A DNA stretch of 61,921 nt, counting the filler, from Sphacelaria rigidula (lineage: Eukaryota), in assembly GCA_964200075.2 (NCBI GenBank). It is 6 parts of 6 records of this genome, joined end to end, with 100 filler letters (N's around TTAATTAATTAA, not from the genome) between each part and the next. Parts side by side here need not be neighbours in the genome. Positions count along the whole stretch, not along the records: positions 10,339 to 20,576 come from CAXNAA020006876.1; 5 more parts are not named here. One strand, given 5' to 3'. Below the pieces are notes generated by a model that was not told the origin of the DNA, did no database searches, and saw only the letters and a list, made by a program, of their open reading frames with translations. Position 1 is the first letter of the stretch. Each line of letters opens with the position of its first letter. The position numbers and the translations under genes were made by a program. Shown here in pieces: positions 4,108 to 32,419 of this stretch.

Positions 4108-5127
4108 TCAGCGCTCGTGTTTCGTCGCATACACATATCGCCTAGAGGGGCGCTTGTTCACCGAGTCTACAGTAGACACTACATTCGCTACATCTTGACT
4201 TGTTCTGCTGGTTGCGCTGTGAATCGAAATTGAAATTTCATAGTCTTCACTCACCACTGAATTTGACAAGTCAACCCCGACATCCGCCTTCAGTCCGCCG
4301 CTGCTGCCATTGCCCATTTCCCCCGCCGCCTTACCCGCCAGTTCCTGCTTCATCTTCTCAGCTAACGCCGCAAAATCAGGCAAAGCTGTCGGCACGGAGG
4401 TCATATCTCTTTTCACAACAGTCACATCAGAAGAAACACGATCACTCCATGATGAAGACTTGACGCGTATCCTGGACGCGTACCTCGAAAACCACTGGGC
4501 CAACGTGATACGCCCGGGTGGTATTTCCGGCGGGGGCTGCGCCTTGCGCCGCGGCGCCAACACAGGCCGCCAAGCGGGAAGCACTACTTCTTGCGAGGAT
4601 AAAATTGAAGAATCGACTGTTAAGGTGGAGCCTGTTATTGCTGAATCGTCGGCGTGCGCTTCCCGAAGTGCGACGGTGCCCAAAAGCGGAGAGGCGGTTG
4701 AGATTGCAGCAAGGACTGAGAGCGCCATGATAGATGTCAAAAGGGTGCGGAAGAATGCCTGGGCAGGCACGCCGGCGGTGCTGACCTTTGCACCCTTGAC
4801 TTCATTTCCAGCCGTTTCTGTCTCTGCATTGTCATTGCTGTCTCGTGAAGGTAGCATGTTAATGGTGGTGGTGACTGCCCCGCGTCCTTGTGCGCTCGGG
4901 TGCCGTTGCTGTTGTTGTCGTGTTTGCCCTTGCTGTTGGATTGCACTTGGACTTCTACGGCAAATGTTCTTGTAGCTGTGCGCATGATGCAGGTCGGTAC
5001 GTGCAGAACGATGCGACAATCTATCTAGAGAAGATCGGAAGGTGGATATGGCGAAAGCTTCCACGTCGGAAAATAGAAGGCCCCGAAGGGCCAGGCAACT
5101 TGTGCAAATAACGTGTAATTTTCGCAT
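4108..5127 (-). CDS. First (or only) exon of an uncharacterised plastid-targeted protein, possibly thylakoid lumen
   Basis: Long ORF from ATG 5127 (MRKLHVICTSCLALRGLLFSDVEA-FAIS): signal peptide ending in an A-F motif, an S/R/Q-rich transit peptide, then a second hydrophobic segment ending in AxA (LLTSIMALSVLAAISTASPLLGTVALREAHA-DD). The 3' splice or stop is unresolved. Confidence 0.65.
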   Translation of the reverse strand: MRKLHVICTSCLALRGLLFSDVEAFAISTFRSSLDRLSHRSARTDLHHAHSYKNICRRSPSAIQQQGQTRQQQQRHPSAQGRGAVTTTINMLPSRDSNDNAETETAGNEVKGAKVSTAGVPAQAFFRTLLTSIMALSVLAAISTASPLLGTVALREAHADDSAITGSTLTVDSSILSSQEVVLPAWRPVLAPRRKAQPPPEIPPGRITLAQWFSRYASRIRVKSSSWSDRVSSDVTVVKRDMTSVPTALPDFAALAEKMKQELAGKAAGEMGNGSSGGLKADVGVDLSNSVVSEDYEISISIHSATSRTSQDVANVVSTVDSVNKRPSRRYVYATKHER

Positions 5128-5470
5128 GCTGATTGATAGATCAACTGCCGAGATGGCAAGCTGAGAGAACGGCGAATGCGTAGAGGTGAAAATCATGACC
5201 ACGGGAAGTCGTACAACACAAAATAATAACACCGGCGCTTCTAGATAGATAACGAGTTCAACACAAACATGCGTCTAGTACTTGCTGAGTTCACGCCGAT
5301 GTAAAATCAATTGAGCGCTATTTACACTGATCCCATGTCCAATCCGTGTCCGAGCGGTGTGTGAAAGGAAAAAGTAGTTTGCGGTTTGACAGTTCACTTT
5401 CATCTTTGAGGTCACGGGTCTGAACACAATACAGGCAAATGTGTTTTTCAAAAACATCATCCTGGTTCCG
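5128..5470. promoter_or_regulatory. Putative bidirectional promoter/5'UTR region between divergent genes
   Basis: Only ~340-415 nt separate ATG 5127 (-) from ATG 5471/5543 (+). No specific elements were identified. Confidence 0.45.
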
Positions 5471-5542
5471 ATGGCTTCAACCCTCGCCGACGAACAACCA
5501 AAGCTCAACTGCCGCTCACTGCCGCTGGTGCCGTGCTCTACA

Positions 5543-8500
5543 ATGCGCTTTGGGTGCTCTCGATCCCGCCAAAAGGCAACCCTTGCCCTAATTATCGGAA
5601 GGCGATTTGCGAGCGCGTTCGTTGCCATTCCCAGTCGGGGTGGGCTCCAGACTAGCACGGTTCCGTCTGGGCCTACGAACTACGGGTTGTGCCCGGCGCC
5701 GACTGCTGCTGCCGCTTGGACGAGATCACGAGCATCGACATGGAGGTGTGCTCGTATGCTGTTGTTGCTTGTTGGAGGGTTTTTTACTGTATGGAGTGAT
5801 AGGTAATAGTGCTGGTGATCGACACGGTGTACACAGCAGACCGTCATACGTGTTTCATGTTTCTGCACCGACAGTCGTCATGTAGTGTAGTATTACATGA
5901 CAGTACATTCGGCTTAGCCGGTGGCCAGAGTCGACTGCCTCGCCGCCGAGAGGTACCAGTGGCCCTGCCGCGCGGCCGACGCCGGCGGCGCCCCCCCGTG
6001 TTGAACCATGAATGCCGACTTTTCACCAGTTCATGTTGATCCATGCCATTTTTTGCACCATATTTGTACACAGATTTGGACTCGTTGGGTTTAGATCCAG
6101 ACTAGGAGCACGAACCGTGTGTACTGTACTGTTGAACGCAAACGGAGAGCCAGCGCGGAATGATTCTGCCTTGAAGAAAAGGGACAGCGCCGTAAACAAA
6201 ACGGGGTTAATCGATCGACTTTAACCCAAAGGGGAGTACACCCAACGAAAGGGCTCAACATATGGACTCAAAAGACTGAACGCTGGGATTGTTCGTCTTG
6301 CGTGCTCGCTGAACCGTCTCTGGTTCATGTTCAACCGTTCTTGAATGAAAAACCCAGTATTATACAAAATGATAAATGATCATCCACGAAGTAGGCTTCC
6401 GCTTGAGGTGTTGTTGTACCTCCCGTTGGCGACATGTGGGGTACACCCATGTTTCCTCCTGTTCCTGAGGAAACGCCCCTTTTGCCTTATCTGCTACCCA
6501 CTCTTGTCCGTTGCCCTTTACATTTTATATCATTACCTGTTTCCGGACAACTCGGGCACGCATCCTGTTAATAGCGGTGACTATTTTGTATATTGTTTTC
6601 GTTGTGACACGCGAGTGACGACAGACCAACACGTGGCGAAGATGGCCCGCTTATGACAGTCGAGATCCAACTGGGAGACTTATCTGACTGAACTTTACTG
6701 CGTACTGCGGTGGTGATGCAGCGCACTTTGCTGCACTGTCTGTACGTGCAACACAGCAGCTGCCTTGCGGCAAATGTTCGTCTGCGCTGTACATACAAGC
6801 CCTCTTTCTGCGATGATCGGAGGAGGCAGATACGTGCTGTCCTTGATGTTTGCTGCCGCTCCTGGCCGTCGTAAGTGCGGATGCGAACAAGGGGAAAGAA
6901 AACTACCGTGATGGCAGAGTGAGATGCAAAGAGGTATGCCCTCATATATGACGGGTGGAGGCCGGTAACAACCATCTCAGTCTTTTCGATGCCAATATTT
7001 GTGTACCGCCTTTCGGCCATTTTGGGGGGGACAGGGTGGACTCGTTTTTGCGTAATATCCCACAAGAACTCATGCATATTCTTGTCTTTCGTGTGGCATT
7101 CCAAGTGAAAATGCCTGCTTCGAATCCATTTTATGCACATTTGAGCGGCAATTTTGACGCATAATTTCTCGCTACACGTGCCATGCAGTACGCCAACTCG
7201 ACCAATACGTTTCTGCGCGCAAGGCGAAGTGAACCCTCGGGAGTAGCTTTCTTAGCACCTGGGAAAAGCTTTTTGAGAATTTTCATTTTGCACTACTTTC
7301 CTTTTTTACACTTCTCTAGAAGAGTATCAACAGCGTTTTCGTGATATTGAGAGTAGAACGCTGATTGAGGGTGGCTTTGATAATTCGCTTTTACTCGCCC
7401 AATTTTTCATTCGCTGTGTGCTTTTCTTTGCCTCCATCGCTGGCGTGTGCTGACAGCTACACGTCGATATCCTACTAACGGATATCGAGGCCCTCATTGG
7501 CAAGCTACTACAGAAAGCATATTGGGCCTCGTCGAGTGGCATTTCGGAACTGAAATGATTCATTCACCAATTGACCGCTTTTCACTCTCAATCGCATCCT
7601 CTACGCTCAATCTCACGAAAACATTGTTTATCGTGTCCTCGATTCCAAACTGATCAACAGGAACAAAACCCAAGCTCCAGCGTTCACAACAGGCTTGAGT
7701 TAAGAACAAAGCACGAAGTAGTTCTTCAATACACGAAGTAGCCGCCGAGAAAACTGTGCATAAAAATAAGAGCTTCGTTCGACACACACGAAATGTAATG
7801 GGGTCCAGTGTTGATGTGCAGTTAATTGTTCTCAAAACAAATGGAGGAGAAAGACGGTCAGTTAGTGTTGTGAAAATGTTATCTTCTTCGTGCTTAGTGT
7901 TGCCGCTTGGTTTGCGCCACAAATAGAGAGCACGGCGCTTCTACAGTGAAGGTGAAACGACCAACCCAATGTCGCCCGTAAGCGTGGCTTCATGAGCGTG
8001 GTGCATGCCACGCCTGGACAGTTGGACAGATTTCGTGATTTTTTATTTTGGTGAGATCATTGGTGTGGCAAACGCAGTATTTCATCGGCGACAAGGCGGT
8101 GGCCCAAAAACGACGCAGTTGCATCTCACCATGTAGTCGAACACAAGCAGAAACTGCGGTTGAGAGAGGAGAGAGTTGGCACACACTTTTCCGATGAGCC
8201 GCACTGCCACACGGCAAGGAATATGTCTCTGTTCTGACGCCGTCACGACATGTGGGTGGTCGTCGGAACTTGAACGCTCAACTTTTCGTGTTTCATATAT
8301 TTGCAAGCACTCGCTCAAATCTCAGCTCCCATTCAAATGTATCGTTCGTTCTGGTGCTGCGCTTTACCGAAGCCTCGTCAACTTCACAAATCTCTGGCCT
8401 CAACACATCCCACTCTCTCGTCGTCCCGCATCAGCTCAGTGGACAGGCGATCGCTCCACGCCCTGCCGGCAGGACAAGCCCACTTTGCACAGGTGGTGGG

Positions 8501-9874
8501 GCCTTCCACGACGACAGGAAGAAGGCGGCGGGCTTCACGCGTCGGGCATCTGCCTGTCAGTTCCCTCATGATGTTCTCCGCGACGTCACCGATCGAGGGG
8601 GACAACATATGTCGAGCGGCTCATATATTATGCGCAGGTGAGTCAGTGCTATACTTTCCCGTACACATCATCCACAAGACTGGTTTCGCGGTGTATTCAT
8701 GAGTACCTGCTGCTCCCGAAGGGAACAGGTCAGTTCAATTTCGGCGGAATGTACCCCCCAAGAGACCTACCTCACGATGGTGAGGTTTTGGTGTATTCAT
8801 GTACGAGCTTGGCCGGCCTACAACCTGAAAAACCTCCCGCTGAACATACCTGAAAAACCACGGCGACATAACGCCGGGTAAACACATCCCTGTGATCGGG
8901 AGATTGCCATACGTGTGCTCCGACAGTTCTTGTTGTACTCAAGGGGGTTCATTCAAACGTTCATGCAAATATTTCGAAGAGAAAATACAATGCATCTGGC
9001 GGAAATCGAACCCACGTTCTGTCCACCTTAATTGTGACAATCTGACCGTTAGACCACCGGGGCGCGGCGGCTGGTTTGATCACGCGAAGATGATGATGCA
9101 CGCCGCATTTTTTCGAATTTGGGGGTAAACTTTTGACACCAGAGAAACGACACTTTGGCCTACTCATTCAGCGCGATCTTCCATTTTTTTTGTAGACGTC
9201 AAGAAAGCTGAAGACAGCGAAAAAATCGCATCGCCCGGAGTTGTGGTGAGATAAATAACAAAGGAAGATCACGGTGACAAAGTAGGTCTATAAGTTGTTC
9301 CGCTGGTGTCGAAATTTCACCCCGAAATCCGAAAAGTTGCACCGTGCATGGCCTGTAACCTGAGGCGAAGAAGCCTCGGCCGGCCCAGCTCGTAGCTCGG
9401 ATTTCTTTTCACCCACTGCCTCTTGTGTTTTTTCTGTGGGTATTTTGAAATGGTAATACAAAGCCTATCGTACTTCCCCTGTAGGAATTACGCCACCTAA
9501 TGCTTCTGATGACTCTATGCAAGCCTCGAGGTATTGGATAATATTTTGTTGAGTATCACGTTTTGCACAGGGACGCACATGGAGTTCATTTCGCCGCAAA
9601 ACACCGCAAGGCTCTCATCGTACGAAAAATTCACTGTCACCGACTAAATCGCCCGGTAGGCGAAGAAAACGCGGACGCAGCGCTGGCTCGTATAAAAGGC
9701 GGCGAGAACTTTGGAGACGTTGCGAGTGACATGAGTTCGTGTCCTTCTAAGGAGAAGGGTGGGGATCTTGGGTGGTTCAAGAAGGGCCAGATGGTTGCCG
9801 AGTTTGAAGCCGCATGCTTCGGGAACGAACCCGGCACTATCGTGAAAGTTCAGTCGCAATTTGGTTGGCACGTG
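5543..9874 (+). CDS. Plastid-targeted PpiC/parvulin-type peptidyl-prolyl cis-trans isomerase (3' end not found on this scaffold)
   Basis: Exons 5543 (or 5471)-5745, 8435-8637 and 9660-9874 join in phase (2, then 1) at GT/AG sites. N-terminus has ASAFVA. The spliced domain reads CRAAHILCAGEENADAALARIKGGENFGDVASDMSSCPSKEKGGDLGWFKKGQMVAEFEAACFGNEPGTIVKVQSQFGWHV, the classic parvulin signature. Confidence 0.9.
7328..7630. mobile_element. MITE-like interspersed repeat with terminal inverted repeats
   Basis: aacagcgttttcgtgatattgagagtaga at 7329 is inverted against ctctacgctcaatctcacgaaaacattgtt at ~7600-7629. Related copies at ~3105-3257 and ~41380-41605. Confidence 0.6.
8991..9066 (-). mobile_element. 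tRNA-derived SINE-like head
   Basis: Minus strand has an A-box-like TGGTCTAACGG and a B-box-like GGTTCGATTTCC. A homologous copy lies at ~10342-10412. No canonical anticodon arm. Confidence 0.55.
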
Positions 9875-10238
9875 GTGAGGCACCTTTTCTGCGTAGCTTT
9901 CGTACGAGGCGTACATCATGCTGCAGTTGGGTGGAGGGCGTTGGACAGCCGATGAGCTTAGCAGGCCACTTTCCGGAATGTGTAAATGAGCTACTGTAGG
10001 TTTCGAAGCAACAGAATGCTCGCCTCACCAAGTTGTGTACGGTTTCGATCTGTTGCGAGTGAGCACGCCTTTAAGCGTTGTCGTTGTGATCGTGGTTGGT
10101 CTTGTTGCGGTGACCGTCGTGTACTTTTCCTGACACAATGGCTTATCTACACTCCTTCCTATTCGCCATCCGAGTCATCCTACGATAGGGGGGGGGGTAT
10201 TTTGGGCCATTTGTTGCTCGAAATTTCGAGTTAGATCG

Positions 10239-10338
10239 NNNNNNNNNNNNNNNNNNNNNNNNNNNNNNNNNNNNNNNNNNNNTTAATTAATTAANNNNNN
10301 NNNNNNNNNNNNNNNNNNNNNNNNNNNNNNNNNNNNNN
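10239..10338. other. Artificial scaffold-joining spacer (N44-TTAATTAATTAA-N44)
   Basis: Identical 100-nt spacer with a six-frame-stop core also at 20577-20676, 30915-31014, 41251-41350 and 51587-51686. Piece lengths are 10238, 10238, 10238, 10236, 10236 and 10235 nt. Confidence 0.97.
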
Positions 10339-10648
10339 CAACGCATCGGGAATCGAACCCCGTTCTCTCCACCCTAATGGCGAAATTTGGACCATTACAC
10401 CACCGGGGCGCGGCGGCTCCCCTCTGGATGCCGAAAAGTTGACCGGAACAGTATTTTGGGGGTTAGCCGAATGGCCGCGTGTGTAGCCCTAACCCTAACC
10501 GTAGGGGTATTTGAATGGACTCCGATGCGGTCCAAAACACACGGCATCGAATCATTGAAGGCATGCTACGCCAAAATTTGGTAAAGTCTGTAATCTTTCT
10601 TCCCCCCTGCTGCTGTGCGTGTGTCGAACGCGAACCCATTTCTCCTAG

Positions 10649-13600
10649 GATGACTACCCAGGAGCCTCACAAAAAGTGTTCAAGCAGTACAGCGGCGCAC
10701 TGGAGGAAGCATCGAACCTCCTGTTCGAGGAAATCGAAGCAGGACACACGAAAAACGTCCGCAACTCGTTTAATATCGGCGGCGGGTTGAAGTTGGAGAA
10801 AATCATCCTCCAACAGAGCGCGCATGTGAAGCACCACTTCAGGACTCCTCTTATGGCCGCGGCTGCCACGGGAAAGTTCGCTTTGTTCAGGGCCACCCTG
10901 CACGCGATCGATCGGCTTTTCGAGAAAAATGATGAGGGGGTGAGTAGAGTACATGTTGCATTTTTCAATGACACAAAGCATAGAAACGTGCAGCGAAACC
11001 TCGGACAAGGTTCAAGTTACCGGCTATCTGCAGGCACCGTGTACTGCGAGAGCATTGTCTAGTTGATGTTTTTGTAATTCATCGCTCTGGCCAGCATTTC
11101 TTTTTTGGAGGAGACTACACCTGCGGGATGGCGTCACATTCTTTTTCTCGTCGGATTTTACCTGTATGGTGTCGCGGTTTCCTTCCTCGGACTCATGTTC
11201 TAAGTGGTCGTCCACATCGACCAATGATGTTGCGTGATTGTGGTCGTAACGGCTTTTGTGGTACGAATCAAACTTTGGTCACAAGGTTGATGTACCCGAG
11301 AGGAGTGAATCGAAGCGCTCGCTTGAGGAAAGTCGAGTGGAGAAAGGACAACAGGGCAGAGGAAAACGGTGTCCAGCAAGACGTTCATATGCATATTCGG
11401 CCGTAGCGAGCGACCCAACCAGCGTTGCGGGGCTACTTTGGCGATAGCTATCAGTGTGCTCTTTTACCGCGGCCGTACTCACTTCAATCCTTTCAGTCCT
11501 GTCCTTGTCAAAATATATTTTTGAGCTCGAAGGTGTGTAATGCTTGGGAGGTCCGCGAGCTGAGGGGACCGCATCGGAGTTTCAACATCCCTATGGTTAG
11601 GGTTAGGATTGGGGTTGGGATCAAAGGCGTGGTCCCTGCAGGGGCTGGCCCGAGTGGTTTTGAAAAACATCGACCCTGAGGTGTCTTGAACTACGATGCA
11701 GTCCCCTAAGCACGTGGTCCTTTCACACATTACAAGTGCATTTATGGTGTGCGTGCCGTTCAGACACTCGATTGTTATGGCAAAAGCTTCGGTGCTGAGC
11801 TGTCATTGCAAAGTGTGCTGCTTCAACGAGAACACCCGCGAAGAGCATCTCTCAGCAGTGTGTCGCTATATGGCTCACGGTGTGATATGCCTAGATTTGT
11901 ACGGGCCATCTCGATTTCATCTACTCCTCAAAACTATTTGGCAATTGTAGCGTTGACCCCCAGGACTATGGGGTGTAATGCGTGAGAGGACCGCGTGCTT
12001 AGAGGACCGCATCGTAGTCCAAAACACCTCAGGATCGACCCTTTTCAAAACCAATCGGGCCAGTCCCTGCAGGGACCACGCCCATGACCCCAACCCCAAC
12101 ACTAACCCTAATCCTAACCCAAGCCATAGGGGTGTTTAGATTTCGATGCGATCCTCTAAGCACGCTGTCCTCTCACGCATTACAGGGGTCCAAGCCAGCC
12201 AGCCATCCCGCCAAACGTGACACGATGTTACGTCGGGGTTTTTCCATATGTTGCGTGTGTGTGCCTCCAAGCAGGAAAACAGCCGGAAGACGGTGATGAT
12301 GAAACAACTAGAGTTGAAAGACGACTCTGGGATGACTCTGGCGATGATTGCCGCTAGCTCTGGAAACATCGCGACCGTCGGGGCCGTGCTCAGGGAAGCG
12401 CAACAGGCATGTGCACACGTGAACTAGGTTCTTGGATATCCTTCAAAGGAAGCGAAATGGTTGAAATGTTGCGGTGTTGTGGTACGATATCGACGAAGAG
12501 GTTTTTAGCCATCTGTGCGAAGCTTATCCTTGATTAACCCATATTGTTGATTTTCCCGTACGTGCTGTTGGGTTGGTGAAGGATCCCCAAACGCTGCTCG
12601 CGGTGGATTATGACCAGAAGACAGCACTTATTCACGCAGCTATGTCCGGGAGTTCAGCCGTGTTCAACGAAGTGTTGAAAGCGATTCACGAGCACTTCCA
12701 TGACGAAGGGGTGAGCTTATGCATCAGAGTGTTCCATTTGCTACGTCCCATGTATGCAAGATGTATATGTCGGTCGTCAGGCGTGTTCCTCCCGGCAACA
12801 AACGACCATTCAATATCGTTGACACGCTGTTTCTATCGTCCCTGTACAGTGCACCGACATGTTCACCGCAGCTCGGGGCGTAGGTTGTGCTGCGCAATTG
12901 CCCTGGTCAAATGAGAGGTGTCGGGGCACCGGGTGTTATCTTGTGAGCACACCTCCCCGTCATATTCGCTTGCCTCTGACTCTCTGCCATTCGCTTCATA
13001 AATTCAGGTGTACGGCCAACTGGTGACATCCTCGGCGGGACGGAAGACGATTCTCATGCACGCAGTGCGCGCCGGCAACCTCATGGGGCTCAACGCTGTA
13101 CTGACCGGTTGTGAGACTTATCTCCCGCCGAAGAAAGTGGGTATTCGTAGCGTTGTTGGACCAGATGCCGCGGTGCTGACAGATTTGAAAGGCGTAACAG
13201 TGCAAACTAGCAGGGGTGGGCGCGCGAGACCCTGTTTTGTGTCCATATGAGTACATTGAGGTGTTTATTCAAACGGACCCTATTTTGTCTCGTGGCTGTG
13301 TGCCTATTTTGTCTCGTGGCTGTGTGCCTATTTTGTCGCATGGCTAGTGCACACAAAGCGCAACAACGTCAATGAGCAACCTTCACCTACGCGTTTCAAG
13401 TGATACTCTGGTGCTGCATATATACGCGATGGTAGTACGATCATGCATGCGCGTTTCGAGCCATTCCGGACTGCGTTCAAACGTTACATCGGCTGGATGA
13501 TTGCTCTGTAATACTGCATGTGGAATTGTCATGACCATGCATGCGCGTTTCAAACCGCGAGTCGAACTCATCTGAACAAGTCCACGGACAAAATCACTCT

Positions 13601-16600
13601 CTGCTTCAAGTAGGTTCGGCACTTGCTCAAGGTTGAAGACTGCGACGGGGTGACGTTGCTCATGCACTCTATCATCGCTGCCAGAGACAGCACCTACATT
13701 CCAGATGACGTCCGAGTGACTCAGCAGACGCAGATACATCAGACATCTGGGCCAACAGACGGCGCCAACATTGCTCCAGCGCCAAGCGCGTCGGGTCTTG
13801 TGGCGGAAGAACAATCGGTTTCCAGCATGAGCCGTGCTGGCGTATTTGCGCAAGACGTGGAGGCTGCAGTGGGTGCATCCCCCACTGACGCCGCTGTTGA
13901 AACTGCGGCACAATCCACAGGCAACGACTCATCCGCGCCGGCAGGTCATGTTATACATTAGTTTAGTAAATCACTTACTATGCTCGTCGAAGTCGTACGA
14001 CGGCACTCTTCAAAAGTTAAACATTGATTCAAGTTCCGAACAGGCCGCCTTCCACAGCAGGTGATTGGTTCAATTGATTTGGGTCTAATCCTGCTTGTCG
14101 AAGTCAGACACTCTTATGCGCTTTCAAGGTCGGTAACGTACCGCGCTTCTCGTACTTACCGTGGGCAAGGTTTCCCTCGATAAGTGGTTGTGCAAGAGAT
14201 GGGTCGACGAGTAGCGCACAGCTAGTTCAGTTAACCGTACCTTGTCTCCCTTGGCATAAACGCAGTCGCTGGTAGCCCGGGCACCGAACAAACCGAAAAG
14301 AGCGGTGGGGGACGCACACCTACAGCAGCAGACGGAGTGGCAGAGACGCGGACACGCAACGACACCGTTGAGCAACACAAAGATGAGAATTATATGGGAA
14401 GGTCCTCCGTCGTCATGTTCAAGTCTACTTTCAACTTCATCCGCAAGTTTCTGTGGAAGGAGCAGGTGCGACATCCGAAGCAGCACGCACAACCCGACGT
14501 CGTAAACATGTACTTGTTTTGTCCTGTAAGTTAGGGTAGTCGATTTTGTACGGACCCTTAACTGTGTCCAACTCTTTGTTTGTGTTTTTAAATGCATTCT
14601 TTGACGGGTTTTTTTCTTCAACGGGTGTCGCATACCCCACGCGATCGAAAGGTCGAAACGAAATCAGTGAAGCCGAAAAATGGCTGTATCTCGCCCCTCT
14701 TTCCCCGGGCAAAAGCACGTCGAAAACAAAACGTGTTGTCTTCGTCGCCACCACTGTAACTTGGAACTAGAACGTCCCAAGCCTTTTGAACGGCCTCGTC
14801 ATCGTATTTTACCACCCTTTCGCACGTCCCCGCCCTCCGCTGCACCCGCACCACGGTAGGATCCACACTACAGTCGTTCTCGCCTAACTTTCGGAGTGTT
14901 TGGATGTCAAGCTTGAAGATGCGTTGCCGTACATTTTCCAACGTGTCACCGTCGTACTCTTGGTGCTGCTGAAAGATAGTCCTCACTTACGTATCTACCG
15001 TACTCGCGTTCATCCCCCATCCTCGTGGCTTGAAAGATCCAAAGAGGCCCAAGTTATTTTTGTTCACGTTAGGCGACTGAGAAGGCTGAGAGATAATCTC
15101 CATCAACCACCCCCGCCTCCTCCGAACTAAACATCTCCGGACTCGTTCCCTGTGTGAGGCCTGCTGAACAACTACGCGCTTTGAAAGTTGCTACAGTATC
15201 TTGAGCTTGATCGTAGGTTGTAGTTCGTCGAAGGTACCGCATGTGGACGTTCATTTATACATTTCATTGGAAATTCTCGAAGATAACATCAACATATTGC
15301 CAACATTCGGTGTATTTGGACTCATCCTACGTTTTTTTCCTTTTACTAACAGAGCCTGCGCTTCGTCTTTCCAACGAACCCAACTATAACAGCGTCACTT
15401 GAACCGTTATCCCAAACGGCCTAATTCTCGTAACGACCCAACGTACGGAACAGAGGAAGCATACACAAGGACCGTGGCTACACATCTCCGTTGTATGTAC
15501 ACGTTGTGAACGTGAGCGCGATGCCGCTGCGCGAACAGCATGCGACCGATCATCCAGTGTACTGTATGCCGTCACTTTCGGTGGAATGCGTAAGCGGTGT
15601 CACAAAGCTGCAGCCAGACTGAGGAGCTCCTTGGCTGAAACCTGGACACTTCGTCGGAAGCTCGACTATTTCATTGTAAATCCACTCTTGTATCACAACC
15701 GCGACACGATCTACAACACCGGCCTGTAGGAGGATTCATCATCCCTCGCAAGGGCACAGTTCCGTTTGTCTTTCGTGTGCTGCAACAGACAGGGCACACT
15801 GACCTTATTGCGTATCTCTATGGGAAATATTCCCCCCTCGACCCTTCCCACCACCTTTGTCAGATACGCGAGCAAGTGCTGGCAACGGACTCGTGGGGGC
15901 GATCGATCCTCACTCTTGCCGTCAGATCTGGTCACACCAGAGTCTTCGACGCCGTGTTTTATGCCGCGCGGGAGAACGTTCTCGACTACGAGGTTTGTGT
16001 GTTGATCCGCTGCTCACCTCGTAGACGGGATTGCGAAGGCTTGAGAAAAACGTTTCTGCAACGACCTCATACGTGAGAATGCCGTCGATAGGGTGAGCCG
16101 GGTCGATTGTATGCAGTGGATGCTATCGAACTCTTGGGAAACGGACAGATGTTGTACTGCCGCACTCGACTGGCGAGCCGCCACTTGTGTGTACATTCGA
16201 AGCTACGAGCTTGGTAGCGAAATATCGAAGTCGGCGGCTCTCTTGTGTGCTCTACACGCACGGCTTGGAGTCAGAGGCTGGAGCATAGAGATTGCACACC
16301 CTGGATAATAGACAACATCGGCAGGAAGTTTACTGCGTACAGTACAGAAGGTTTCGTCTATTGTAGCAGTCGATACTGTACGCGGTATATGTTTGCCAAT
16401 GTAATATGTTGTCTAGGGTATGAGACTGGCGTGTTTCGGATAAACTGAATAAGAAGTAGTTTCTCTGAAAGCTGAAGTTAATGCAGCGTGGATGAGACCA
16501 ACGTGTGATGTTGACACTGGCGTAAATTGGCATCGATGATTCATCTGAGACTATGATTAGCCCGTATGGCGTTGCCCTGCACCGGTCTTTCTACTCACGA

Positions 16601-18750
16601 TGCCGTGGTGACATGTGCCTGGGCTGACAGGTGGATAAGATGCTAGGTATTGACAAGGACGACGACTCGGAGACTGCAATGGAAGCGGCGCTAACTACCG
16701 CGACATCGGAAATGAAAGATTTGGTGACAAAACGATCGCAGCAACTCAAGGTACAAAAAAGAGACCGGTGTCTACAGTACAACAGCTTGCTACTTATGAT
16801 TTGATGTTTGGTTCGGCGCTATCATGTTGGCTCAGGTGCTCTTTCTCACCTTGACATGGTAGACGGAAGAGATGCATCCATGTTCACTTAGATGCTCCCG
16901 TAATACATGCAGTAGAAATCTCTCAGTCGTAGCTGACCACCCAAGACTGGGCTAGATAAGCGTTTTATAGAACTCGACATCGTGGAACTTGAAAGTTGTT
17001 GAGCCGAGCGGCTGACATATTGTCGGAACAGAAAAACTTCTGCTTCTTCAGAGCTGTCTTCTCACGTTGAGAGCCTGGTGTGGTCTCATCCTGTTGACTA
17101 ATCTAAGCCACCTTCGTGGTTCTCCTTCCCAGAAATCGGTGGCACTCCGGGAGAAGGCGTCGACAATTGAAGCCAAGATCCAGTCCTTCATTCCGGGGAA
17201 GATGATAGTTGTGAGTGATACATGCTACGCAATGCCGCGACGCACTACGGTGAAATGGAAGTAATTATTCATACAAAACTGCAATGTTGGAGTTTCTTGG
17301 GCTCGGTCGTAGGGGAAAGTACACTCACGATCTAGCGAGGCGACAGCGTTCCGTTTCCAGGACACTGTTACTTCAACTCCAGGCTCTTCTCCATGGCACA
17401 TGGCGAAGGCAAGGGCTGCTTATGTAGATGGCTCCACTCAAGGTTGGCTGCAAGGAACATCATGCCTTCCCGGACTCCTCGCCGCGATTATCTCTGTATG
17501 ATCCCGACAAGAGTCCACGGCATTCTTGGACATAGTGCACAGCCGGTTAAGATGAAATATGACGAAAAGTGTTGTCCTCAAAACGATTGGGTTCCAACGT
17601 GACACGTACATTGTTGCCTTCGTTCGCATGACCGTGCTGTCTTTTCAGATATACCAACTGCTCCTACCGGAGGTTACTGATGAAGAGCAAATGTTTTACA
17701 TGCTGCTGATCCTCTGCATCATTGCTCCTGTTCTAGCCTGGGGGAGCAATCTCATCTCGAAAGATTCGTCTTCTGGGCAAGACGGAGCAAGGTGAAGCAA
17801 CTGCATCTTCTCGTCTCGGTATTGAAGCATGGCACTTTTGTGCAACGATTATATGTTGGCGTTGTTCGCGTTATTAGGTATGTTCATTTTCAAGCTGATG
17901 GAATCGGCACCGATAGCGTGGCATCCACAGCACGGGGCTTCATCCATCGTTGAGCTATCCTCCGATAGAGCGGGAGCGTATTAGAGCGACTTCTTGCACG
18001 ATAGAGCTGCTTTGAGCGTCGGTGCGGGCTGCAAATTACTTTTGAATGTGTAGCATCCCACGCATACTTACACCGCTCGGTAACGTTTTGACGCGAAATA
18101 CATGCTCATAACGAGTGGCTGAGCTTGGGTACCACACGTACGAAGTTCTTTGTTGATGACCGATCACATACCCCGCCTCCATCCTACGGAAGGTCCGTGT
18201 TTGTCATGTAAACGCTTCAACACAAAGATACCACCCACCGTACTGTTCTACCCTTTCCACGCGAGCGGATTGAATATCGTCGATGAAATGGACCGCGTTT
18301 AGGTACTTTGTATTTGTGTGTCATCATTCTAAGCGCACCAGAACGTTTTGGTCGAAGTATCCAACTTCCCTGGATCTGATGTGAACGTACGCAAGTATGC
18401 ACACGCTCGGGAACATGCATGTAGATGCTTGTAGAGATATCAAGCAATTGTCCAAACATTTCACACACTCGGCAGCACTACAAGTTCGGGTGGTTTTTAT
18501 TTCGCCTTACCCCCCAATTTCCCTGTTCAACAAACGATTTTCGCGCGAATCCATCAGCAAGACCACGATGGCTATTCTACTTTCTGCACCCGCATTGTTC
18601 TTCTGGGGGATCGGTACGAGCGACGCCGGGAAGATCACTTTGGGTTGGGATCAGTCCCTAAGTGCCGCTGCGTTAGCCGTGGCGACGATAGTCATCCCTG
18701 GTGTGGATGCATTTTTCGCAAGCCAAACAGCGATCCAGTATCTCGACCAG
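10649..18750 (+). CDS. Ankyrin-repeat protein with C-terminal multi-pass (about 4 TM) membrane domain, 5'-truncated
   Basis: In-phase exons 10649-10939, 12275-12406, 12582-12710, 13008-13136, 13614-13944, 14326/29/32-14465, 15864-15992, 16631-16750, 17133-17210, 17649-17791 and 18558-18750, with a possible last exon at 18917-19189. Ankyrin-like motifs: TPLMAAAATG, SGMTLAMIAASSG, KTALIHAAMSG, KTILMHAVRAG, DGVTLLMHS, WGRSILTLAVRSG. Hydrophobic helices occur in the last three exons. Confidence 0.85.
11536..11734. mobile_element. TGT...ACA MITE with internal TTAGGG-like tract (Ginger-like termini)
   Basis: ~40-nt TIRs of the TGTAATGCGTGAGAGGACCGCG type. Flanks ggtg/agtg form a degenerate 4-bp TSD. 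Confidence 0.75.
11974..12184. mobile_element. TGT...ACA MITE, same family, opposite orientation
   Basis: TIRs TGTAATGCGTGAGAGGAC / GTCCTCTCACGCATTACA, perfect 4-bp TSD GGGG, internal CCCTAA-like tract. Confidence 0.85.
14513..15459 (-). mobile_element. Non-autonomous Tc1/mariner (plant-MLE/DD39D-like) deletion derivative in an intron
   Basis: Degenerate CTTCCTCTGT-type TIRs, TA on the left. Minus strand retains YDGDTLENVRQRIFKLDIQTLRKLGENDCSVDPTVVRVQRRAGTCERVVKYD, resembling an MLE transposase C-terminus (TL..V....L...GGN.Y..PH). Confidence 0.7.
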
Positions 18751-20314
18751 GTCAGTGGAAAGGGTATGTGTTTCTTGTTGGCAACAGAGCGATGGCCACA
18801 GTTTGCTATTCAAAAAGCGGAGAAGTAGTGACAGCTATACGTACCCTTCGCAAGGCGCCCATGGGATGTTCACTAGCGAGTTGCAGCACTGCGTTTCCAT
18901 CCATTTGACCACACAGTTGCAGCAGCTGATCAGGTGCTACGGTTTCGATGTTGGCTTCATTAGTGCGATGAAAACCTTCATGCTCACGAACCGCGCGTCA
19001 CCTATTTCCTCTCCCTTAACCGGACCCGAGAATGGGCCGGGGTCCTCCAAGTGTGATCTCATGGCTAAATCAACAATCCCCACGCTTTCCGTTTTGTTTT
19101 CCGCCACCGGGCGCCTGTCCGTTCTTCTGAAATGGTATGGTGGAGCAGTGGTCTTGCGCGAAATGGCGCTTCACCCGAAAGGTGTGTGAAATGGCTGCAG
19201 GACACGCTCATAGGCCCACGCAGTCAAGTTTGTGAATCGATAATGAAAGTCAGACAAGACTCGTGCTGGTGACAATGCCGTGTGCTTCGTGTCCAAGTGA
19301 TCACATAGAGAAAACACGACAGCGCAGCGGGCGATAATGCTCTCTGGCTAGATGTGGAGAATTCGGTGGTGATCCGTGCTCTTCGCGGCGCCGACAGTCA
19401 AATATTCCCTGTGACACGGCGTCTATCGCTTCTTCGACCGTTTTCACCCAGGCGCACGAGAGGTGGGGGCGGGCAAAAAAATCTGACGTGGGAACTCCGA
19501 ACTTCCTTCAGAGAGTCGTGCCACACTTCCAGGTGATGTGCTGAGCTCTTGGGCGCTCATAGCTATCGAAAGGGATCACGGTTGTAGGCAAGTTAGTCGG
19601 CGAACGCATTAGTGTGTGCCGTGGTTGTATCTACGAGCACATGTGGGACTTTTTCGCTGCTCAGCCGGTATGCTGGAGTCGACGGATAACATTCGGAATA
19701 TCCGTACCCACCCACACTTTGAGTAACAGCTCGTGGCATACCACCCCGCCTACACTGTCCCACTTCCTCTGTACTTGTATCATTCCCTTCACCACCCTGC
19801 TATCACCACTCTGCATGCGATACCCCCAGTGCTGCCTACGTTTTCCCTACTTGATTGCTTGTCGTGTACCATCGTCTGCTTCACCTAGAGTGCGAATGAA
19901 GGCCTTGCGAGATCGTGGGACAAATCTGAGGTAACGGCGGCTGCCAAGAGTCGGAGCATTGACAACGAACCTCAACAACAACGGCAACGTGCACCTACAT
20001 CGGCTTCTTCGTGGACAATAGCTGAGGAGAAGCATTGAGTCCGATAACGATTTCTACAGTTGTGATGTTACCAACAATACCTTTTGAGATGGATAACGCT
20101 CAGGGTTGTTATGTAGGCTTTACGCTCCGCGGGGGGGCGGGGTTATTCGGCCACACATTCGTATGTGAAACGTGGTATCGCTTGTGGGCTCGGTTTCTCT
20201 AAGTTGCCACTTAGTACGCCCGAACCACCGTCAGAGTGAGGGTCCACGTCGGGGGACCGTTCTCGAAAGAAAGCCCATAGGACGTGTAACGACAGCCAAC
20301 AAGAGGCGACGTTT

Positions 20315-20458
20315 TCATTTCGTAAGGCGTACCGAGCTATCCGGGTTCCAGGGTTTCAAGGCAAGACAGACGTGTAACGTGAGGTACAAGGCTATCGCGA
20401 ATTCCATTTCAAACTGTTTGAGTAGCTCGGTAGATGAGAGCCCTTCTTCGAGCTCATC
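20315..20458 (-). CDS. Possible isolated exon of an unknown gene
   Basis: ttatag acceptor followed by DELEEGLSSTELLKQFEMEFAIALYLTLHVCLALKPWNPDSSVRLTK*. No recognisable family. Upstream sequence is lost at the scaffold end. Confidence 0.3.
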   Translation of the reverse strand, partial: DELEEGLSSTELLKQFEMEFAIALYLTLHVCLALKPWNPDSSVRLTK

Positions 20459-20863
20459 CTATAACCAGCGCCTTGTCGTGATTCAGTCTGGACAACATGC
20501 AAAGACACATTGGAGTCATCCTACGATAGGGGGGGGGGGGGTATTTTTGGCCATTTGTTGCTCGAAATTTCGAGTCNNNNNNNNNNNNNNNNNNNNNNNN
20601 NNNNNNNNNNNNNNNNNNNNTTAATTAATTAANNNNNNNNNNNNNNNNNNNNNNNNNNNNNNNNNNNNNNNNNNNNTCTCGAAAGGCATGTGTGGTCAAT
20701 GGTCAAACGACTAAGGCAAGCAACAATTGAGTACCCCCACCCCACCCACCCCCCTCCCCGCTCCTCCCCTCATTCGCTTTCTCTTGGCGCGCACCTTTAC
20801 ACCTGCTTCCCCCCCCCCCGCGAATCTCGAATACCCTCATACAAGCGGGAGGGAATCCCGCAG

Positions 20864-21225
20864 CCACACCTCCCGCACCGCATGAATCCAAACTGCGCCT
20901 TCTGTCGGTGGCCGGATGCCGGGGAATCACCGACGCGGGCGTCATCCGTATCGGTGAGTCTTTGTCCGCATCGCTGCGGGAATTCGACATCTCGGGCACG
21001 TCCGCAACAGAGGAAGGACTTGTGCGGATATGCGGGAAGGGGGTTGACGGCCAGCGGCTAGGCAGGAAGATTCGCCTGCAGAAGATCTCGTTGCCCATGT
21101 ACGGCCGTGGTATATCGGCCGCGGGTCTGAGCGCCATCACGGGGTCGATGGTGGAGTTGACCTCCCTGGACCTTGAGGGGTGTAACGGCCCGGACGTAAA
21201 TTCCCGAGCGCTTGCGGGTGAGTTG

Positions 21226-21260
<35 letters not shown>

Positions 21261-24200
21261 GTTTTTTTTTTTCCTTGAAATGTTTTGTTGCGCACATAAA
21301 TTGCACCTGTACTTGACGCATGCGCGATGGATTAGATTCGACGTTTATTTTTTAATTACAAGGGAGGGCGTGTAGGCTATCAACAAGGCTTCAGTTTTAC
21401 CCGGCACGTGGTGGTGAAAATATGTCGGAAGATGTTTCAATCTATTGAGGGCTTTGATTTTCGTCTGTGTATCTCCGCTACTGCTTGCTTCATGAAAAAC
21501 GACAATATTGTTTCACGCATAAACTCACCCCACGAAAAAAAAAAAAGCCACCTCCGTCCGGAAGCTGTTTTGCCCTTAGGTCCAAGCTGTGACACTTTAA
21601 ACGACTGCCCCCGCCGAAAAAGTGCCTGGTTTGGGGAGGAAAAATGTTCACGTGAATCGAAATGGGAAAGACCGAGCACAACGAGCAGCTTGGAATCCCC
21701 CCGCTTGGGTTCGTTCTCGCCAATGTCGCCCATATGAGGCGCTTCATGCAGCCTGAACCCAAATATCAGGCGCTGTATTACCATTCTTTTCGTGACACTA
21801 CTGGGCTGGTTTGGGGGGGCAGGGGCTATCGTAGCAAGCGTTCTATCCGACTTAGATCCTACCGTCCGAAGAAAAGTAAGATATTCATGGTTACGCGAGA
21901 TTTTTTTTGTGCACTCATCTTTACTGCTTCCCTCTGAAAGTGATGATTAAACGTTCATTTTCTTCCATTGGATCTCCCCCCCCCCCAAAAAAAAAAAATC
22001 ACAGCCATCTCGCGACTGGAAGACTTGCGCTATCTTGGACTGGCCAACGTGCAAGCCTTTGACGATGAGGCCCTTTCAGCAGTGTGCTCCTCTTGCACCA
22101 AGCTTCAAACGCTCAACCTCAACGGTACGGGGGTGCAGCAAGTTGAAGGCCTCGCTTTGCTCGGTGTCATCTTAACGGACCTCAGCCTTGGCCACACCAA
22201 GTGAGTATTTACTTCTTTTTTTTTCTTTCTTCAGCTTCGGTGGCTAGGAGGATCGTAAAAGCACGCTTTTAGGGCCTGATGTTAGGTTCGCTGAGATGAA
22301 GTAAGACACGTGTATCAACCGTTGGTTGCGTTTTTTTTCCACGCCGGCGAGTCCGCATCACGCACAGTCATAATCCACCCGTGAAAATGTTGTACACCCT
22401 GGACAATAGGTTGCACTGTCAAGAAGTGTACTGCGTGCAGTATCGACTATTGCATCTGTTGCAACAGGCTAAAGATTTCATAATGTACGTATTATAGTAC
22501 ACCTTTCGACACTTGTATCTGTTGTCCAGGGTGTGCAACATTGTGGATTATGACTGCGTCATGCGGACTCAATAGATTGCATTGTCGAGAATTGTACTGC
22601 GTACTGTATCGACTATTGCAAGGATCGGACGAAAGATTGGTTCGTCTGGAAATTACTTGATTATAGTGTAGTTGATTCGTACCCCACGAATCAATCCTCA
22701 AGCTTTGTTTTCAGTGTTGCAACCCAGGTACGCGCGGCCCAGGGATGTGGAATGGCGCATAAATTGCGTGGAGACCGTTTTGACCAGCGGCCATTTTTTT
22801 TCTCTCTTTCGAGCAATCACGCCTGAAAATTCGTAGATTTAGCTATTCGAACCGGCGATGATTCGTCCGAATCGAGGACTATTGCACATGTTGCAATAGG
22901 CTATAAATTTCGTAATGTACGTATTATAGTATTATAGTACACTTTTTGACGACGTAATTTATCGTCACTATCCGGGGTATGGATGGAAGCAGCAAAAACG
23001 ACAGTTCGTTTTTGTTTTTTTGTCGGCATTCTTTCAAACCCTCCCCTTCCTCCGGAGAGGTCCGGAGAGTCTCCCGGGATCAACCCGTCCATCTCTCCCT
23101 GGGTACTTATACGCCTCGCATGTTGGCATCGCCGATTGGATTGGATCATGACTATTCCCGCATCACCTCGACTCTCGTCAACTTACCTGTCTTTGCTACT
23201 CAAAGCCTTCATGCTGTCAACGGCGGAAACGAGATACGATCAGCACATCTCAGGCAAAAAAAAAATGCAAGGGTGTGTGTAGGGTGGGGTAGGGTAATGC
23301 CCAGAGATTTCCTTTCCCGAATTTTTTAGTGCGATGGCCCAATCTCTAACCTCTACCCAAATATTGGGTAAAGTTGGGTACGATCGCACTACTCACCCCA
23401 ATATCTGGGTTTTGTTGAGTTGTTGTTGTTGTTGTCTTCACATTAAAAAACCGTTCCGATATCTGCGCGGTACATTCGTACCGGGCATCTGATGCGGACG
23501 CCTTCCGTGGTCACAGGCTAGCAAATGAGTACGAGTTGTGAAGATACATACCGATATCGCAGTTTTTTCCCCAGCCGTATTTGTTTGTCCAGGGGCATTT
23601 TTCGAAACCTCGGAGCCGAGCGAATCTAAAAATTATCTGGACTCATTTTGGTGGGGCGATGCAAAGTGTCCAAGACGTGTGATGGCGATATTCCCTGTTT
23701 TGGAGCCAAAAACCGCGTCAAAAGGTCCAAAAAGTGGAAAATACGACCCCATAAAACACGAGCCGTAAGAAACGGTCTCAGAATACGATTTTTCAAAATA
23801 CCCAAGTGTACGAAATACTCCACCTGACACACTCTTGGAGAACTGAATCCGAATCTGCCGGGATTCGAACCGAACCCGCGATCGTTCGCCCTCGCTGGGT
23901 TTCATGTGTGTACCGGTTGGGACATGCGCATGTACAATGTTCCGTTTCCCCCAGTTTATTTCAACTGTTCTTACAGGGCCTCCTTGCCGTAAGCCATGCG
24001 GCAGAAAGGCCGGCCGTTCTAATTTGCTGTTTTGTTTTTGGCAGACCGGTACGAAGGTAGATGAATATTTACTTTCTCCATCACATAAGTTAGGACCGAA
24101 TTTCGGCGCTGATCGTATCTTTTCAACGGAGGCGCCTACGATGCTATAATTAGTTTCATCGAAAATATTTTTTTTACAGCTAACTGATGCAAATATATAT

Positions 24201-30200: not shown

Positions 30201-32419
30201 CTATTTCGTCCAAAACCCCGTCGCACAACAGAACAAGTCGATTTCAATCCACGCGCCGGTGAGATTCGTATACTATATGAAAAGGTGGTGGGGGGGGGGG
30301 GGGGGGGGATTCCATACCACCAGCGTATGTTACCACTTGGTAGGATAGAAATTTATCGGAAACTAATGATTTTGAGACAATGCTAACCCTCCAACCCGAA
30401 CCAAGCGATACCGAAAACCCTCAGGTAATGGGGGTGCAAAGTGTTCTGTAGTTAAGTTTGCGTCGGTGAACCTCAAGTCGTCGCCTGCGACGCCGATTTA
30501 AACAAAAAAAACGCATTTTGTGCATGCTAGGAGCACTTGGGGGTTCTCAGGCCGTGTCCTATCAAATTGTTCTCGTGTCGAAAATGTGCGGTCGAATCGA
30601 ATTCCCTCGTTCTTGATTCGCCCACACTCTTTATTTTCTCAGATGGTTGAGAACATGGATGCCGTGGACGTATCAGGTAAGAGCAAATTCGATTCCACCG
30701 TACGTTTTCGAATCGAAACCAACTTGATAAGACACGGCCTCAGCCCCACTTGAGATCTGAATCTCGATGTTATAAATTCAAATCAAGCGAAAATATTCCG
30801 AGAAACTTGTAGGAAATATCTACGGCATACCACCAACTCCGGAACGGTACGAGCTGGGCCGGCCAAGACGCCAAACGCTCGCCAATATGGCTGTGCCCCG
30901 CCCATTTTTTCGAGNNNNNNNNNNNNNNNNNNNNNNNNNNNNNNNNNNNNNNNNNNNNTTAATTAATTAANNNNNNNNNNNNNNNNNNNNNNNNNNNNNN
31001 NNNNNNNNNNNNNNCCTACACACGCCGAAAAGACCTTCCCCACGACGTATCGACAAGACCGGCCATGGCCTTCGTCGGAGGACGGGGAATGGAGGAGTAT
31101 GGTACTCGTTTTTTCATCGGGCTGACAGTCTCAATCCCTCGCCTAGCCTACTCCGCTCGCTCAGCGCGCCTTTCGATTCAAATCGACGCCAAGAGCGCCA
31201 ATTTGACCTCTGATAACGCACATTCTCCTCAGGACATTGTATGGATCTCCTTTGCCTGAGGGTTCACTGTATGCCTTGCGTTGGGGTCTAGGGTAGGGTC
31301 AGCCTTCGAGTTGAACGAAGCAAAGTATATTCAACCATGAAGTTCCCTCGCCGGATTCGCATACCCCCGCCTCGTAGTATATTTATTTTCGAATACTGCC
31401 GTCACGTTGGCTTAAAACGCATTTGGTTGTTTCACTCTGATGTATGTGTTTGAGATGTTATATCGTGGTGTGTATACAATACAGCTGGCAGTAAGGGTGA
31501 TCCTCTGTGAGCTCCAGCAATATGTATACAGCGCAGTACATGGCAGTGTAGTATCGAACTTCATGGTACCGTGAGGATGATACAGTAGAGCCACTCCGAC
31601 GGCATGGCAACAAAACGACAAACCAGTTACTGGAGAGGCTAAAGAGTGGTCCGGTACAGTTTTGGTTCGTAATTTTGACCATTTGTTGACGGTGCCGGAC
31701 CAATCGAGTCCGGTTTGAAATAATCCCCTTTCCAAGGGAAACAATCGGAACACACGTGTATGGGCCAAACAGTCTACAAGGCGGCTCGATAATAAAAAAA
31801 ATAATGATGTACATACGTGCAGATGGAAGATCAGGGCACAGAACGAGATATTAAAATACAAGACAACGAAAAACGATGAATGAACAATCATCAAACACAT
31901 GCCTCTCAACGAGAAAAAAACAAGAAACGAACGATGCACACCATGGAGCTGGAAAAAAGGAAACGTACATGGTTCACTTCAGACCTGCCTCAAACAATAT
32001 CGTATCCCATGCTCCCATGGTGCACGAGAATATTACGCCGGACAGATCACGATCTATCTGAAATTACGAACTAACCGAAGAAGAGTCACGACTCCGTGGG
32101 TCCAAAAACACAACATATGTGACCGCGGAGTGAGAAACGCCAAAGCGTCACCTTTGCGCTAATCGGCGTGCTTGGCGTCCGGCGCTGTAAAGAGAAAATA
32201 TGGGAACAGGTGCCGAAAGATCCGGATCACGATTCAAATCAGTACGCTGAGAGGAAGTAGTTTCCGGACGGATCATAATCTGTCCGACATGTGATTTTTT
32301 TCGGAATATAAACTTGTCTATATTCCACAGCCTGGACAATACAATACGTGATATGTATTGCCCGCTCGATATGCCGACACTGTTGGCAATTTATACAGTC
32401 CCGCCCGATATGCCGACAC

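Follow-up and report, generated by a model that had tools for sequence, protein, structure and literature searches.

We analysed a 61,921-nt stretch of DNA from the brown alga Sphacelaria rigidula (GCA_964200075.2), hereafter the window, which joins six parts of this genome. A gene of at least 14 exons was located at positions 10682-20038 on the plus strand by mapping of a deposited protein and by spliced contigs from public sequencing runs. This protein, P0001, is a 606-aa record titled 'unnamed protein product, partial [Sphacelaria rigidula]', in which ankyrin-like units precede a membrane domain. The interval 16631-18750 covers four exons of this gene, exons 8 to 11, and shares its outer limits with them. 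The original prediction, made from the nucleotide sequence alone, read it as an ankyrin array fused to a membrane domain of about four helices, which looked DUF679/DMP-like, with small bacterial relatives, rather than PGG or TRP.

We examined the expression of the gene using contigs of four public runs, coded X1 to X4, whose kind (RNA) was guessed and whose contigs were placed up to position 19950. The runs hold 21-26% of the sampled words of 12200-19950, which is approximately the exon fraction of that region. The contigs omit every predicted intron, and 12 exon joints were detected, 11 in all four runs and the twelfth in three of them. When the joints are allowed to shift in the range of their ambiguity, 11 of them have GT..AG sites and the remaining one (12407..12581) has GC..AG. 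A contig of 2151 nt from run X2 (record 5) runs collinearly from exon 2 (12274) to exon 11 (18747); 471 nt lie between its displayed pieces, compared with 470 nt summed for exons 7-10. In all four runs, a contig links exon 6 to the membrane exons, and also exon 7 where the pieces were displayed. The RNA-supported exons give a single open frame of 701 codons and a stop over 10682-20038. The gene is incomplete at its 5' end (10682), where no start codon was found, and P0001 is likewise partial. A second copy of the gene was sought across the window, and none was found.

The peptides noted in the original prediction are present in P0001, letter for letter. They lie in frame across canonical splice sites (16631-16750, 17133-17210, 17649-17791, and 18558-18750); the codon AG|C is split across 17791|18558 with the frame kept, and the translation of 18559-18750 is 100% identical to P0001. 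The run contigs were also checked for a separate transcript carrying the transmembrane (TM) exons, and all four runs join these exons to the upstream ones. The gene is real and is expressed as a spliced contig in which the ankyrin and membrane exons are fused. Because the 2151-nt contig spans 12274 to 18747, this fusion is not an artefact of the gene model.

The first seven exons encode the ankyrin-like part. Exon 1 (10682..10939), from the start of which P0001 maps, encodes unit 1 (RTPLMAAAATG...); its donor, 10939|GTGAGT, was taken from the consensus of loose contig ends at 12274 in four of four runs. Units 2, 3, and 4 are encoded by exon 2 (12275..12406, with the joint 12404->12580 in all four runs), exon 3 (12582..12710), and exon 4 (13008..13136), the latter two being supported by P0001 mapping and contigs. 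The sole AG acceptor within the ambiguity of the intron after exon 2 pairs with a GC donor. Exon 5 (13614..13944) encodes unit 5 with a low-complexity insert, and its joint 13940->14262, present in all four runs, is GT..AG at +4. Contigs define exon 6 (14266..14465), a helical segment ahead of the last ankyrin unit, and exon 7 (15864..15992), which encodes unit 6 (GRSILTLAVRSGH...) with a weak Ank_4 match.

The linker, membrane domain, and tail follow on the same strand. Exon 8 (16631..16750) encodes a helical linker, acidic then basic, that equals helix 2-31 of the structure model described below. Exon 9 (17133..17210) completes the linker helix and adds the first half of helix 1 (STIEAKIQSFIPGKMIV), both exons being placed by contigs. 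Helix 1 is completed (IYQLLLPE) in exon 10 (17649..17791), which also encodes acidic loop 1, TM2, and the beginning of basic loop 2, and exon 11 (18558..18750) encodes TM3 (LLSAPALFFWGIGTS), a conserved outer loop (GW), and TM4 (SAAALAVATIVIPGVDAFF). Contigs further place exon 12 (19149..19181), the start of a basic C-terminal helix whose motif (WSCAKWRFTRK) is conserved within one subfamily, and exon 13 (19452..19532), a basic tail. Exon 14 (19889..20038) runs to the first in-frame stop; its joint 19530->19887 was detected in three of the four runs, and the frame was checked.

The P0001 model and the contigs differ at three places, namely the exon 1 donor, the GC-AG intron, and the extents of exons 5 and 6. 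Exon 1 ends at 10948 in the P0001 model versus 10939 in the contigs, and the intron between exons 2 and 3 is 12418|12582 in the model versus GC..AG at 12407-12581. The contigs extend exon 5 to 13944 (13871 in the model) and start exon 6 earlier, at 14266 (14382 in the model). The partial P0001 model ends at 19915, compared with the in-frame stop at 20038. Contigs of lower depth (4.6-18) run unspliced through two introns (13964-14291 and 19503-19916), which suggests intron retention or pre-mRNA.

Ankyrin units have about 33 residues with a T-x-L-[MH]-x-A-A-x-x-G core. By inspection, six ankyrin-like units were recognized, one per exon, in exons 1, 2, 3, 4, 5, and 7. Pfam Ank_2 (PF12796) matched three stretches of P0001 with 48.9 bits against a cut-off of 27.3 (E 1e-12), and Ank_3 and Ank_4 likewise exceeded their cut-offs. 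Among seven family proteins, Ank_2 exceeded the cut-off in four; two of the others are C-terminal fragments, and the score of P0011 (591 aa) was under the cut-off. Precomputed Pfam annotation lists ankyrin domains in 16 of 22 homologues, the rest being partial or sub-threshold.

The original prediction had proposed topology prediction as a check, and we performed it using hydropathy, AlphaFold2, and charge. Hydropathy detected three strong TM segments in P0001 (residues 461-483, 497-515, and 528-550) and an additional short hydrophobic helix, FIPGKMIVIYQLLLP, at residues 441-455. All four hydrophobic segments were helical in AlphaFold2. The algal model was built for P0001 residues 410-606 with 26 family rows, and had a mean predicted local distance difference test score (pLDDT) of 78.6 and a predicted template modelling score (pTM) of 0.54. 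In the numbering of the model, it contains a long linker helix, helix 1 (34-46), TM2 (50-76), TM3 (89-106), a short helix (109-114), TM4 (118-140), and a long basic helix (142-174). The net charge of the five non-membrane segments alternates (+3.6/-1.5/+2.3/-1.3/+4.0 over 15 algal domains), and the signs are identical in 66 bacterial rows. This alternation leads us to infer a four-pass topology with the N- and C-termini inside; both ends would lie in the cytosol, and therefore the ankyrin array would be cytosolic. Taken with the Ank_2 match and the spliced contigs, the predicted helices uphold the original description of an ankyrin array and a roughly four-helix membrane domain in one transcript.

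The helix 1 motif STIEAKIQSFIPGKMIV is invariant or nearly so in 15 domains. Invariant positions in the membrane domain include Pro, Trp, Gly-Thr-Ser, and Ile-Pro-x-x-Asp. We searched for known relatives of this domain at the sequence and structure levels. The best match in a sequence profile search of the Protein Data Bank (PDB) had an E-value of 0.094. Foldseek searches of the PDB with the algal and bacterial models gave no match at E <= 1e-3. A wide VIA-align search against PDB folds gave best Z values of 7.6 and 7.5 for the two models and none of at least 8; that a particular family is missing from these lists carries no weight as evidence. In the Protein Atlas, the algal domain had no usable feature match, and the structure rows all had TM-scores below 0.52 and no family. 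No catalytic or pore signature was found in the membrane part in the Pfam, PDB sequence, and fold searches.

Twenty-two proteins of named brown algae match P0001 residues 425-575. The family has members in Sphacelaria, three Ectocarpus species, Pylaiella, Scytosiphon, Laminaria, Undaria, Ascophyllum, and Hapterophycus. Paralogues, a count of which had been suggested with the original prediction, number three or four in several brown-alga species and fall into subclades of the tree described below. The genes form a multi-copy family that, among eukaryotes, has so far been seen only in brown algae. Since the domain is conserved in these 22 proteins and in 23 cluster representatives at E <= 1e-30, the feature is far beyond chance. 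In 18 full-length members, the mean pairwise identity was 56.8% in the membrane domain versus 35.4% in the N-terminal part, and the membrane domain had the higher identity in all 153 pairs.

Some family members carry additional C-terminal sequences. P0031 (1002 aa) and P0039 (834 aa), from other brown algae, have a long extension after the membrane domain with a common conserved block (…HCP…EF..PLLLDFLL…YLRAHI.HF…), which had no Pfam match at E <= 1e-3. By eye, we take this block to resemble a ZU5-like domain, a likeness for which Pfam found nothing. In P0008 (1134 aa), the annotation places a sulfotransferase domain (Sulfotransfer_1, E 2.9e-10) at the C-terminus; this model may have merged separate genes and need not reflect a true fusion.

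Small bacterial relatives of the membrane domain, as originally predicted, do exist. A profile of 15 isolated algal domains was searched against 1.84 billion cluster representatives and gave 139 matches at E <= 1e-3, of which 23 were at E <= 1e-30. Brown-alga proteins and fragments make up the strong matches. Nine weaker matches (E 2.7e-5 to 9e-4) are proteins of 134-167 aa that align over the whole domain. Their motifs are collinear with the algal ones: KY[VI]P[AG]EV pairs with SFIPGKLIV, AFxAWAxGTS with FFWGIGTS, and LAVAVFLIPxxD with LAVATIVIPAxD, and G[WL]D lies between the latter two. Comparison of the algal and small-protein alignments using hhalign gave a probability of 99.0% (E 4.7e-18, 122 columns). 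The family motifs are [KS][YF][IV]P in helix 1 and A-[FM]-x-x-W at the end of TM3, and group 1 also has G-T-S and I-P-x-x-D. The Pro and Ala/Trp columns are invariant across 30 mixed algal and bacterial rows.

The small bacterial proteins have no Pfam or NCBIfam family, none of 14 proteins matched PADLOC, and none of the 33 matches of a mixed-profile search has any Pfam domain. The nearest Protein Atlas clusters of the bacterial protein P0127, which we treat as a lead only, are 'hypothetical protein' clusters lacking Pfam domains, mostly from Actinomycetota. Relatives are encoded by 154 of 360 candidate metagenome stretches. A first scan of genome contigs found none among 119 pattern matches, and a second scan with another alignment located relatives at 35 loci in named bacterial genomes. 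The holders include six Catellatospora, Actinoplanes, Allorhizocola, Micromonospora, Thermoleophilia, Ardenticatenales, Planctomycetota, Opitutus, Chlorobiaceae, and several Mesorhizobium. Three of 301 sampled Actinomycetota genomes, the centre genome included, hold a match, and the family is therefore rare there. No relative was found in viral contigs with the bacterial or algal profile.

A model of the Catellatospora paridis member (143 aa, L086:5929-6357), built from 68 rows, had a pLDDT of 88.5 and a pTM of 0.80, with helices at 34-47, 52-75, 85-102, 104-109, and 114-139. The order and length of the helices agree between the algal and bacterial models, as compared by predicted helices rather than by superposition. 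Thus the bacterial four-TM proteins are like the algal domain in motifs, predicted helix order, and charge pattern. They differ in being stand-alone, with a short basic N-terminus (M-x-R-T-I-V...), no ankyrin repeats, and no long basic tail, and helix 1 has Glu in the bacterial proteins whereas it has Lys or Asn in algae. Judged from these shared motifs and profiles, the membrane domain belongs to an unnamed family, the other members of which are small (about 135-205 aa) stand-alone bacterial membrane proteins.

To place the algal domain, we used a hidden Markov model (HMM) and a tree. Two groups can be told apart among the bacterial members. Of 88 distinct ones, the algal HMM matched 34, and these all come from the group that keeps G-T-S and I-P-x-x-D (the near group). 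An unrooted tree of 106 rows and 126 columns, calculated by a quick method, contains a branch with Shimodaira-Hasegawa-like approximate likelihood ratio test (SH-aLRT) support of 100 between the other bacterial group, which has 50 rows from many phyla, and the 56 rows of the near group and the algae. All 18 algal rows fall in a single clade, which has a long stem (3.21). In the near group, the rows that carry names are from Actinomycetota, except for one from Chloroflexota. Since the family occurs in many bacterial phyla, versus only brown algae among the named eukaryotic matches, the transfer would have been from bacteria to a brown-alga ancestor. Whether the module reached the ancestor of brown algae from bacteria and was then fused to ankyrin repeats is, in our estimate, an even call. 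Published cases of bacterial gene capture in brown algae, as given in the available part of PMC11468063, are of a kind that this scenario fits. A viral (phaeovirus) origin was considered but dropped because of the 13 introns of the gene, its splicing, and the absence of relatives in viral contigs.

We next weighed which family the membrane domain might otherwise belong to. As a DUF679/DMP-type domain, it would make the protein an ankyrin sensor with a DMP-like effector that remodels membranes or facilitates fusion. Its first helix, F-I-P-G-x-L-I-V-I-F-Q-L-L-L-P, resembles the DMP start LLPTGT...FQ, as judged by eye, and small bacterial relatives exist. According to the available text of PMC5383025, DMPs have four TM domains with the N-terminus, the C-terminus, and loop 2 in the cytosol, which the small unit of about four helices and two predicted cytosolic ends in the alga matches. 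The same text describes a highly conserved C-terminal GIGY motif and, in DMP1, cysteines in loops 1 and 3 that presumably form a disulfide; both it and PMC11477165 describe DMPs as confined to green plants. DMPs are not known to carry ankyrin repeats. In contrast, the PF05078 (DUF679) HMM, with a cut-off of 25 bits, matched none of the 15 algal domains, 7 family proteins, 9 small bacterial relatives, or 5 bacterial genomes holding a relative at E <= 10, a range in which HMMER filters hide most matches above E of about 0.1. GIGY was absent from the C-terminus of all 18 full-length family members, and loops 1 and 3 contained no conserved cysteine, the cysteines being in TM2 or sporadic. The inspected matches of the 1.84-billion-protein profile search were all of the brown-alga type or the small bacterial type, with no plant-type protein among them, and the mixed-profile matches without Pfam domains point the same way. 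The Pfam HMM tests thus rule out the family membership that had been proposed, four helices with both ends inside being a generic feature, and we regard the DMP-type reading as very improbable.

Membrane-bound ankyrin proteins are known from the ACD6 type and from TRP channels, and in a diverged member of either, ankyrin repeats would likewise precede a multi-pass region; the 'IPG' with which the membrane part opens is compatible with such a protein. The plant ACD6/ITN1 type (ankyrin and PGG, PF13962) shares the order of a cytosolic ankyrin array and a multi-pass membrane region, and a functional analogy is plausible; ACD6 is reportedly ion-channel-like. However, PF13962 and Ion_trans (PF00520) matched none of the 15 domains and none of the 7 proteins at E <= 10, as the original prediction had anticipated in setting the domain apart from PGG and TRP. 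The algal protein also has other motifs than the ACD6/ITN1 type and a bacterial-type ancestry of its membrane part, and its domain has four hydrophobic helices, not the six and a pore loop of TRP/Ion_trans. Its closest relatives are small bacterial proteins without ankyrin repeats. The 15 isolated domains gave only four weak Pfam matches, each in one member (best DUF4267, E 0.0073), and the only ion channel in the PDB profile search was Kv3.1 (E 1.3, 63 positions). An ACD6- or TRP-type origin is hence scarcely credible. At the fold level, CALHM chains can be aligned with both models over 106-128 residues (Z 6.8-7.2, root mean square deviation 4.2-5.6) and likewise have four helices followed by a C-terminal helix; the identity is 6-8% with no sequence link, such Z values are common for unrelated helical bundles, and kinship is not evidenced.

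These results favour, with a probability of about 0.75, a protein in which a cytosolic ankyrin platform is mounted on a conserved four-pass module of an unnamed bacterial-type family, which is not DUF679, PGG, or TRP. Alternatively, annotation could have created the fusion by merging an ankyrin gene with a neighbouring gene for a small membrane protein; some family models are merged or split (P0008 with its sulfotransferase domain; P0036 and P0038 on one contig), and the deposited P0001 model departs from the RNA contigs at three places. The chance that the fusion arose in this way is negligible, given that contigs of all four runs carry exons 6 and 7 in frame with the membrane exons, that a single contig covers exons 2 to 11, that 701 codons are read without interruption, and that the architecture recurs in 16 of the 22 homologues. 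A different question is whether the four helices merely anchor a membrane-tethered scaffold whose function lies entirely in the ankyrin platform. In favour of this, protein binding is a general property of ankyrin repeats, and the searches gave the membrane part neither a catalytic nor a pore signature, and no family or fold match. Against this stand its higher conservation in 153 of 153 pairs and the invariant Pro, Trp, Gly-Thr-Ser, and Ile-Pro-x-x-Asp common to the ankyrin-less bacterial proteins. A mere anchor would not be expected to keep its motifs from bacteria to algae, and we consider this explanation possible but rather unlikely.

In the favoured arrangement of ankyrin platform and four-pass module, the array on the cytosolic side would bind cytosolic partners, and the four-TM bundle would act specifically in the membrane, through self-association, as a small pore, or by binding a membrane partner or lipid. 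A specific role is suggested because the motifs persist from stand-alone bacterial proteins to algal fusions and the module is the most constrained part. We put the odds that the array binds partners while the bundle acts specifically, beyond anchoring, at roughly half, and it is doubtful that the bundle is an actual channel. More speculatively still, the ancestor of brown algae may have captured a rare bacterial four-helix membrane protein and welded it to an ankyrin array, after which the fusion expanded to several paralogues in each genome and came to serve as an ankyrin-controlled oligomeric pore or membrane sensor. If this were true, the ankyrin and channel-like design of plant ACD6 and animal TRP would have been invented independently, and the bacterial family would gain its first functional handle.

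Several points weigh against the platform-and-module reading. Confidence in the model of the algal domain is only moderate (pTM 0.54). With about 13-15 residues, helix 1 is short and may be re-entrant or interfacial, in which case there would be three passes and another topology. The runs were only guessed to be RNA, for which the spliced contigs argue, and full-length single molecules cannot be demonstrated with contigs. As the nine relatives were picked from the matches of the algal profile, the hhalign score is not wholly independent of that choice. A clade of the near-group bacteria (38 rows) that excludes the algae was not rejected (approximately unbiased test, p-AU 0.643), and the algae may be sister to this group rather than nested in it; owing to the long algal stem (3.21) and the lack of a root, neither nesting nor the direction of transfer is established. 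Clustering of the bacterial neighbours found no neighbour gene conserved across phyla, and the context therefore gives no functional clue. The high conservation of the TM helices could also be explained by binding to a single conserved membrane partner instead of by an activity of the domain.

The broader original idea of an undescribed ankyrin and four-helix membrane architecture with small bacterial relatives survives. In literature searches on brown-alga ankyrin proteins, supplements not covered, no paper on the family was found. In Fucus, nine ankyrin-domain genes are up-regulated under low salinity according to the available part of PMC6958763, in which their family is not stated. Searches of Pfam, NCBIfam, PADLOC, PDB sequences, and PDB folds gave no family for the membrane module, which is a candidate for a new domain family entry. 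It connects a rare bacterial protein family to a multi-copy gene family of those brown algae for which annotated proteins were available, and is a further candidate case of bacterial gene capture followed by domain fusion in these algae.

The neighbourhoods of the bacterial genes were also inspected. One locus has dense bacterial neighbours, for example radical SAM, BTAD, and peptidase M64 genes. In three of three Micromonosporaceae loci tested, a convergent gene for a CHAT (caspase-like) domain lies next to the small membrane gene, on the minus strand (L086:6340-7704, L091:6391-7644, and L085:5451-6713); it was not seen in other phyla. In two Mesorhizobium genomes, the -1 neighbour (L112:5121-5789 and its counterpart in L113), which has no Pfam family, clusters by BLAST with the small membrane family, suggesting that it is a tandem paralogue. 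We judged the CHAT adjacency and the local synteny in Mesorhizobium to be lineage-local.

Within the window, pairs of 44-N runs set 12 bases apart occur at 10239-10338, 20577-20676, 30915-31014, 41251-41350, and 51587-51686, recurring every 10336-10338 bases; the piece that holds the gene, 10339-20576, has 10238 bases, which is also the length recorded for the contig of P0001. The window therefore looks like pieces of equal size set apart by spacers, the gene model being cut where a piece ends. The sequences just ahead of the blocks at 10239 and 20577 have in common a stretch of about 60 nt with a poly-G run. In the preceding piece, an open frame on the plus strand (9542-9952) encodes a parvulin-type peptidyl-prolyl isomerase domain (Rotamase_3, E 2.4e-19). 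Downstream of the gene, exons resembling leucine-rich repeats (LRR) lie at 20731-22201 on the plus strand, with LRR matches that are sub-threshold only, and a (TA)n-type microsatellite is located near 21200.

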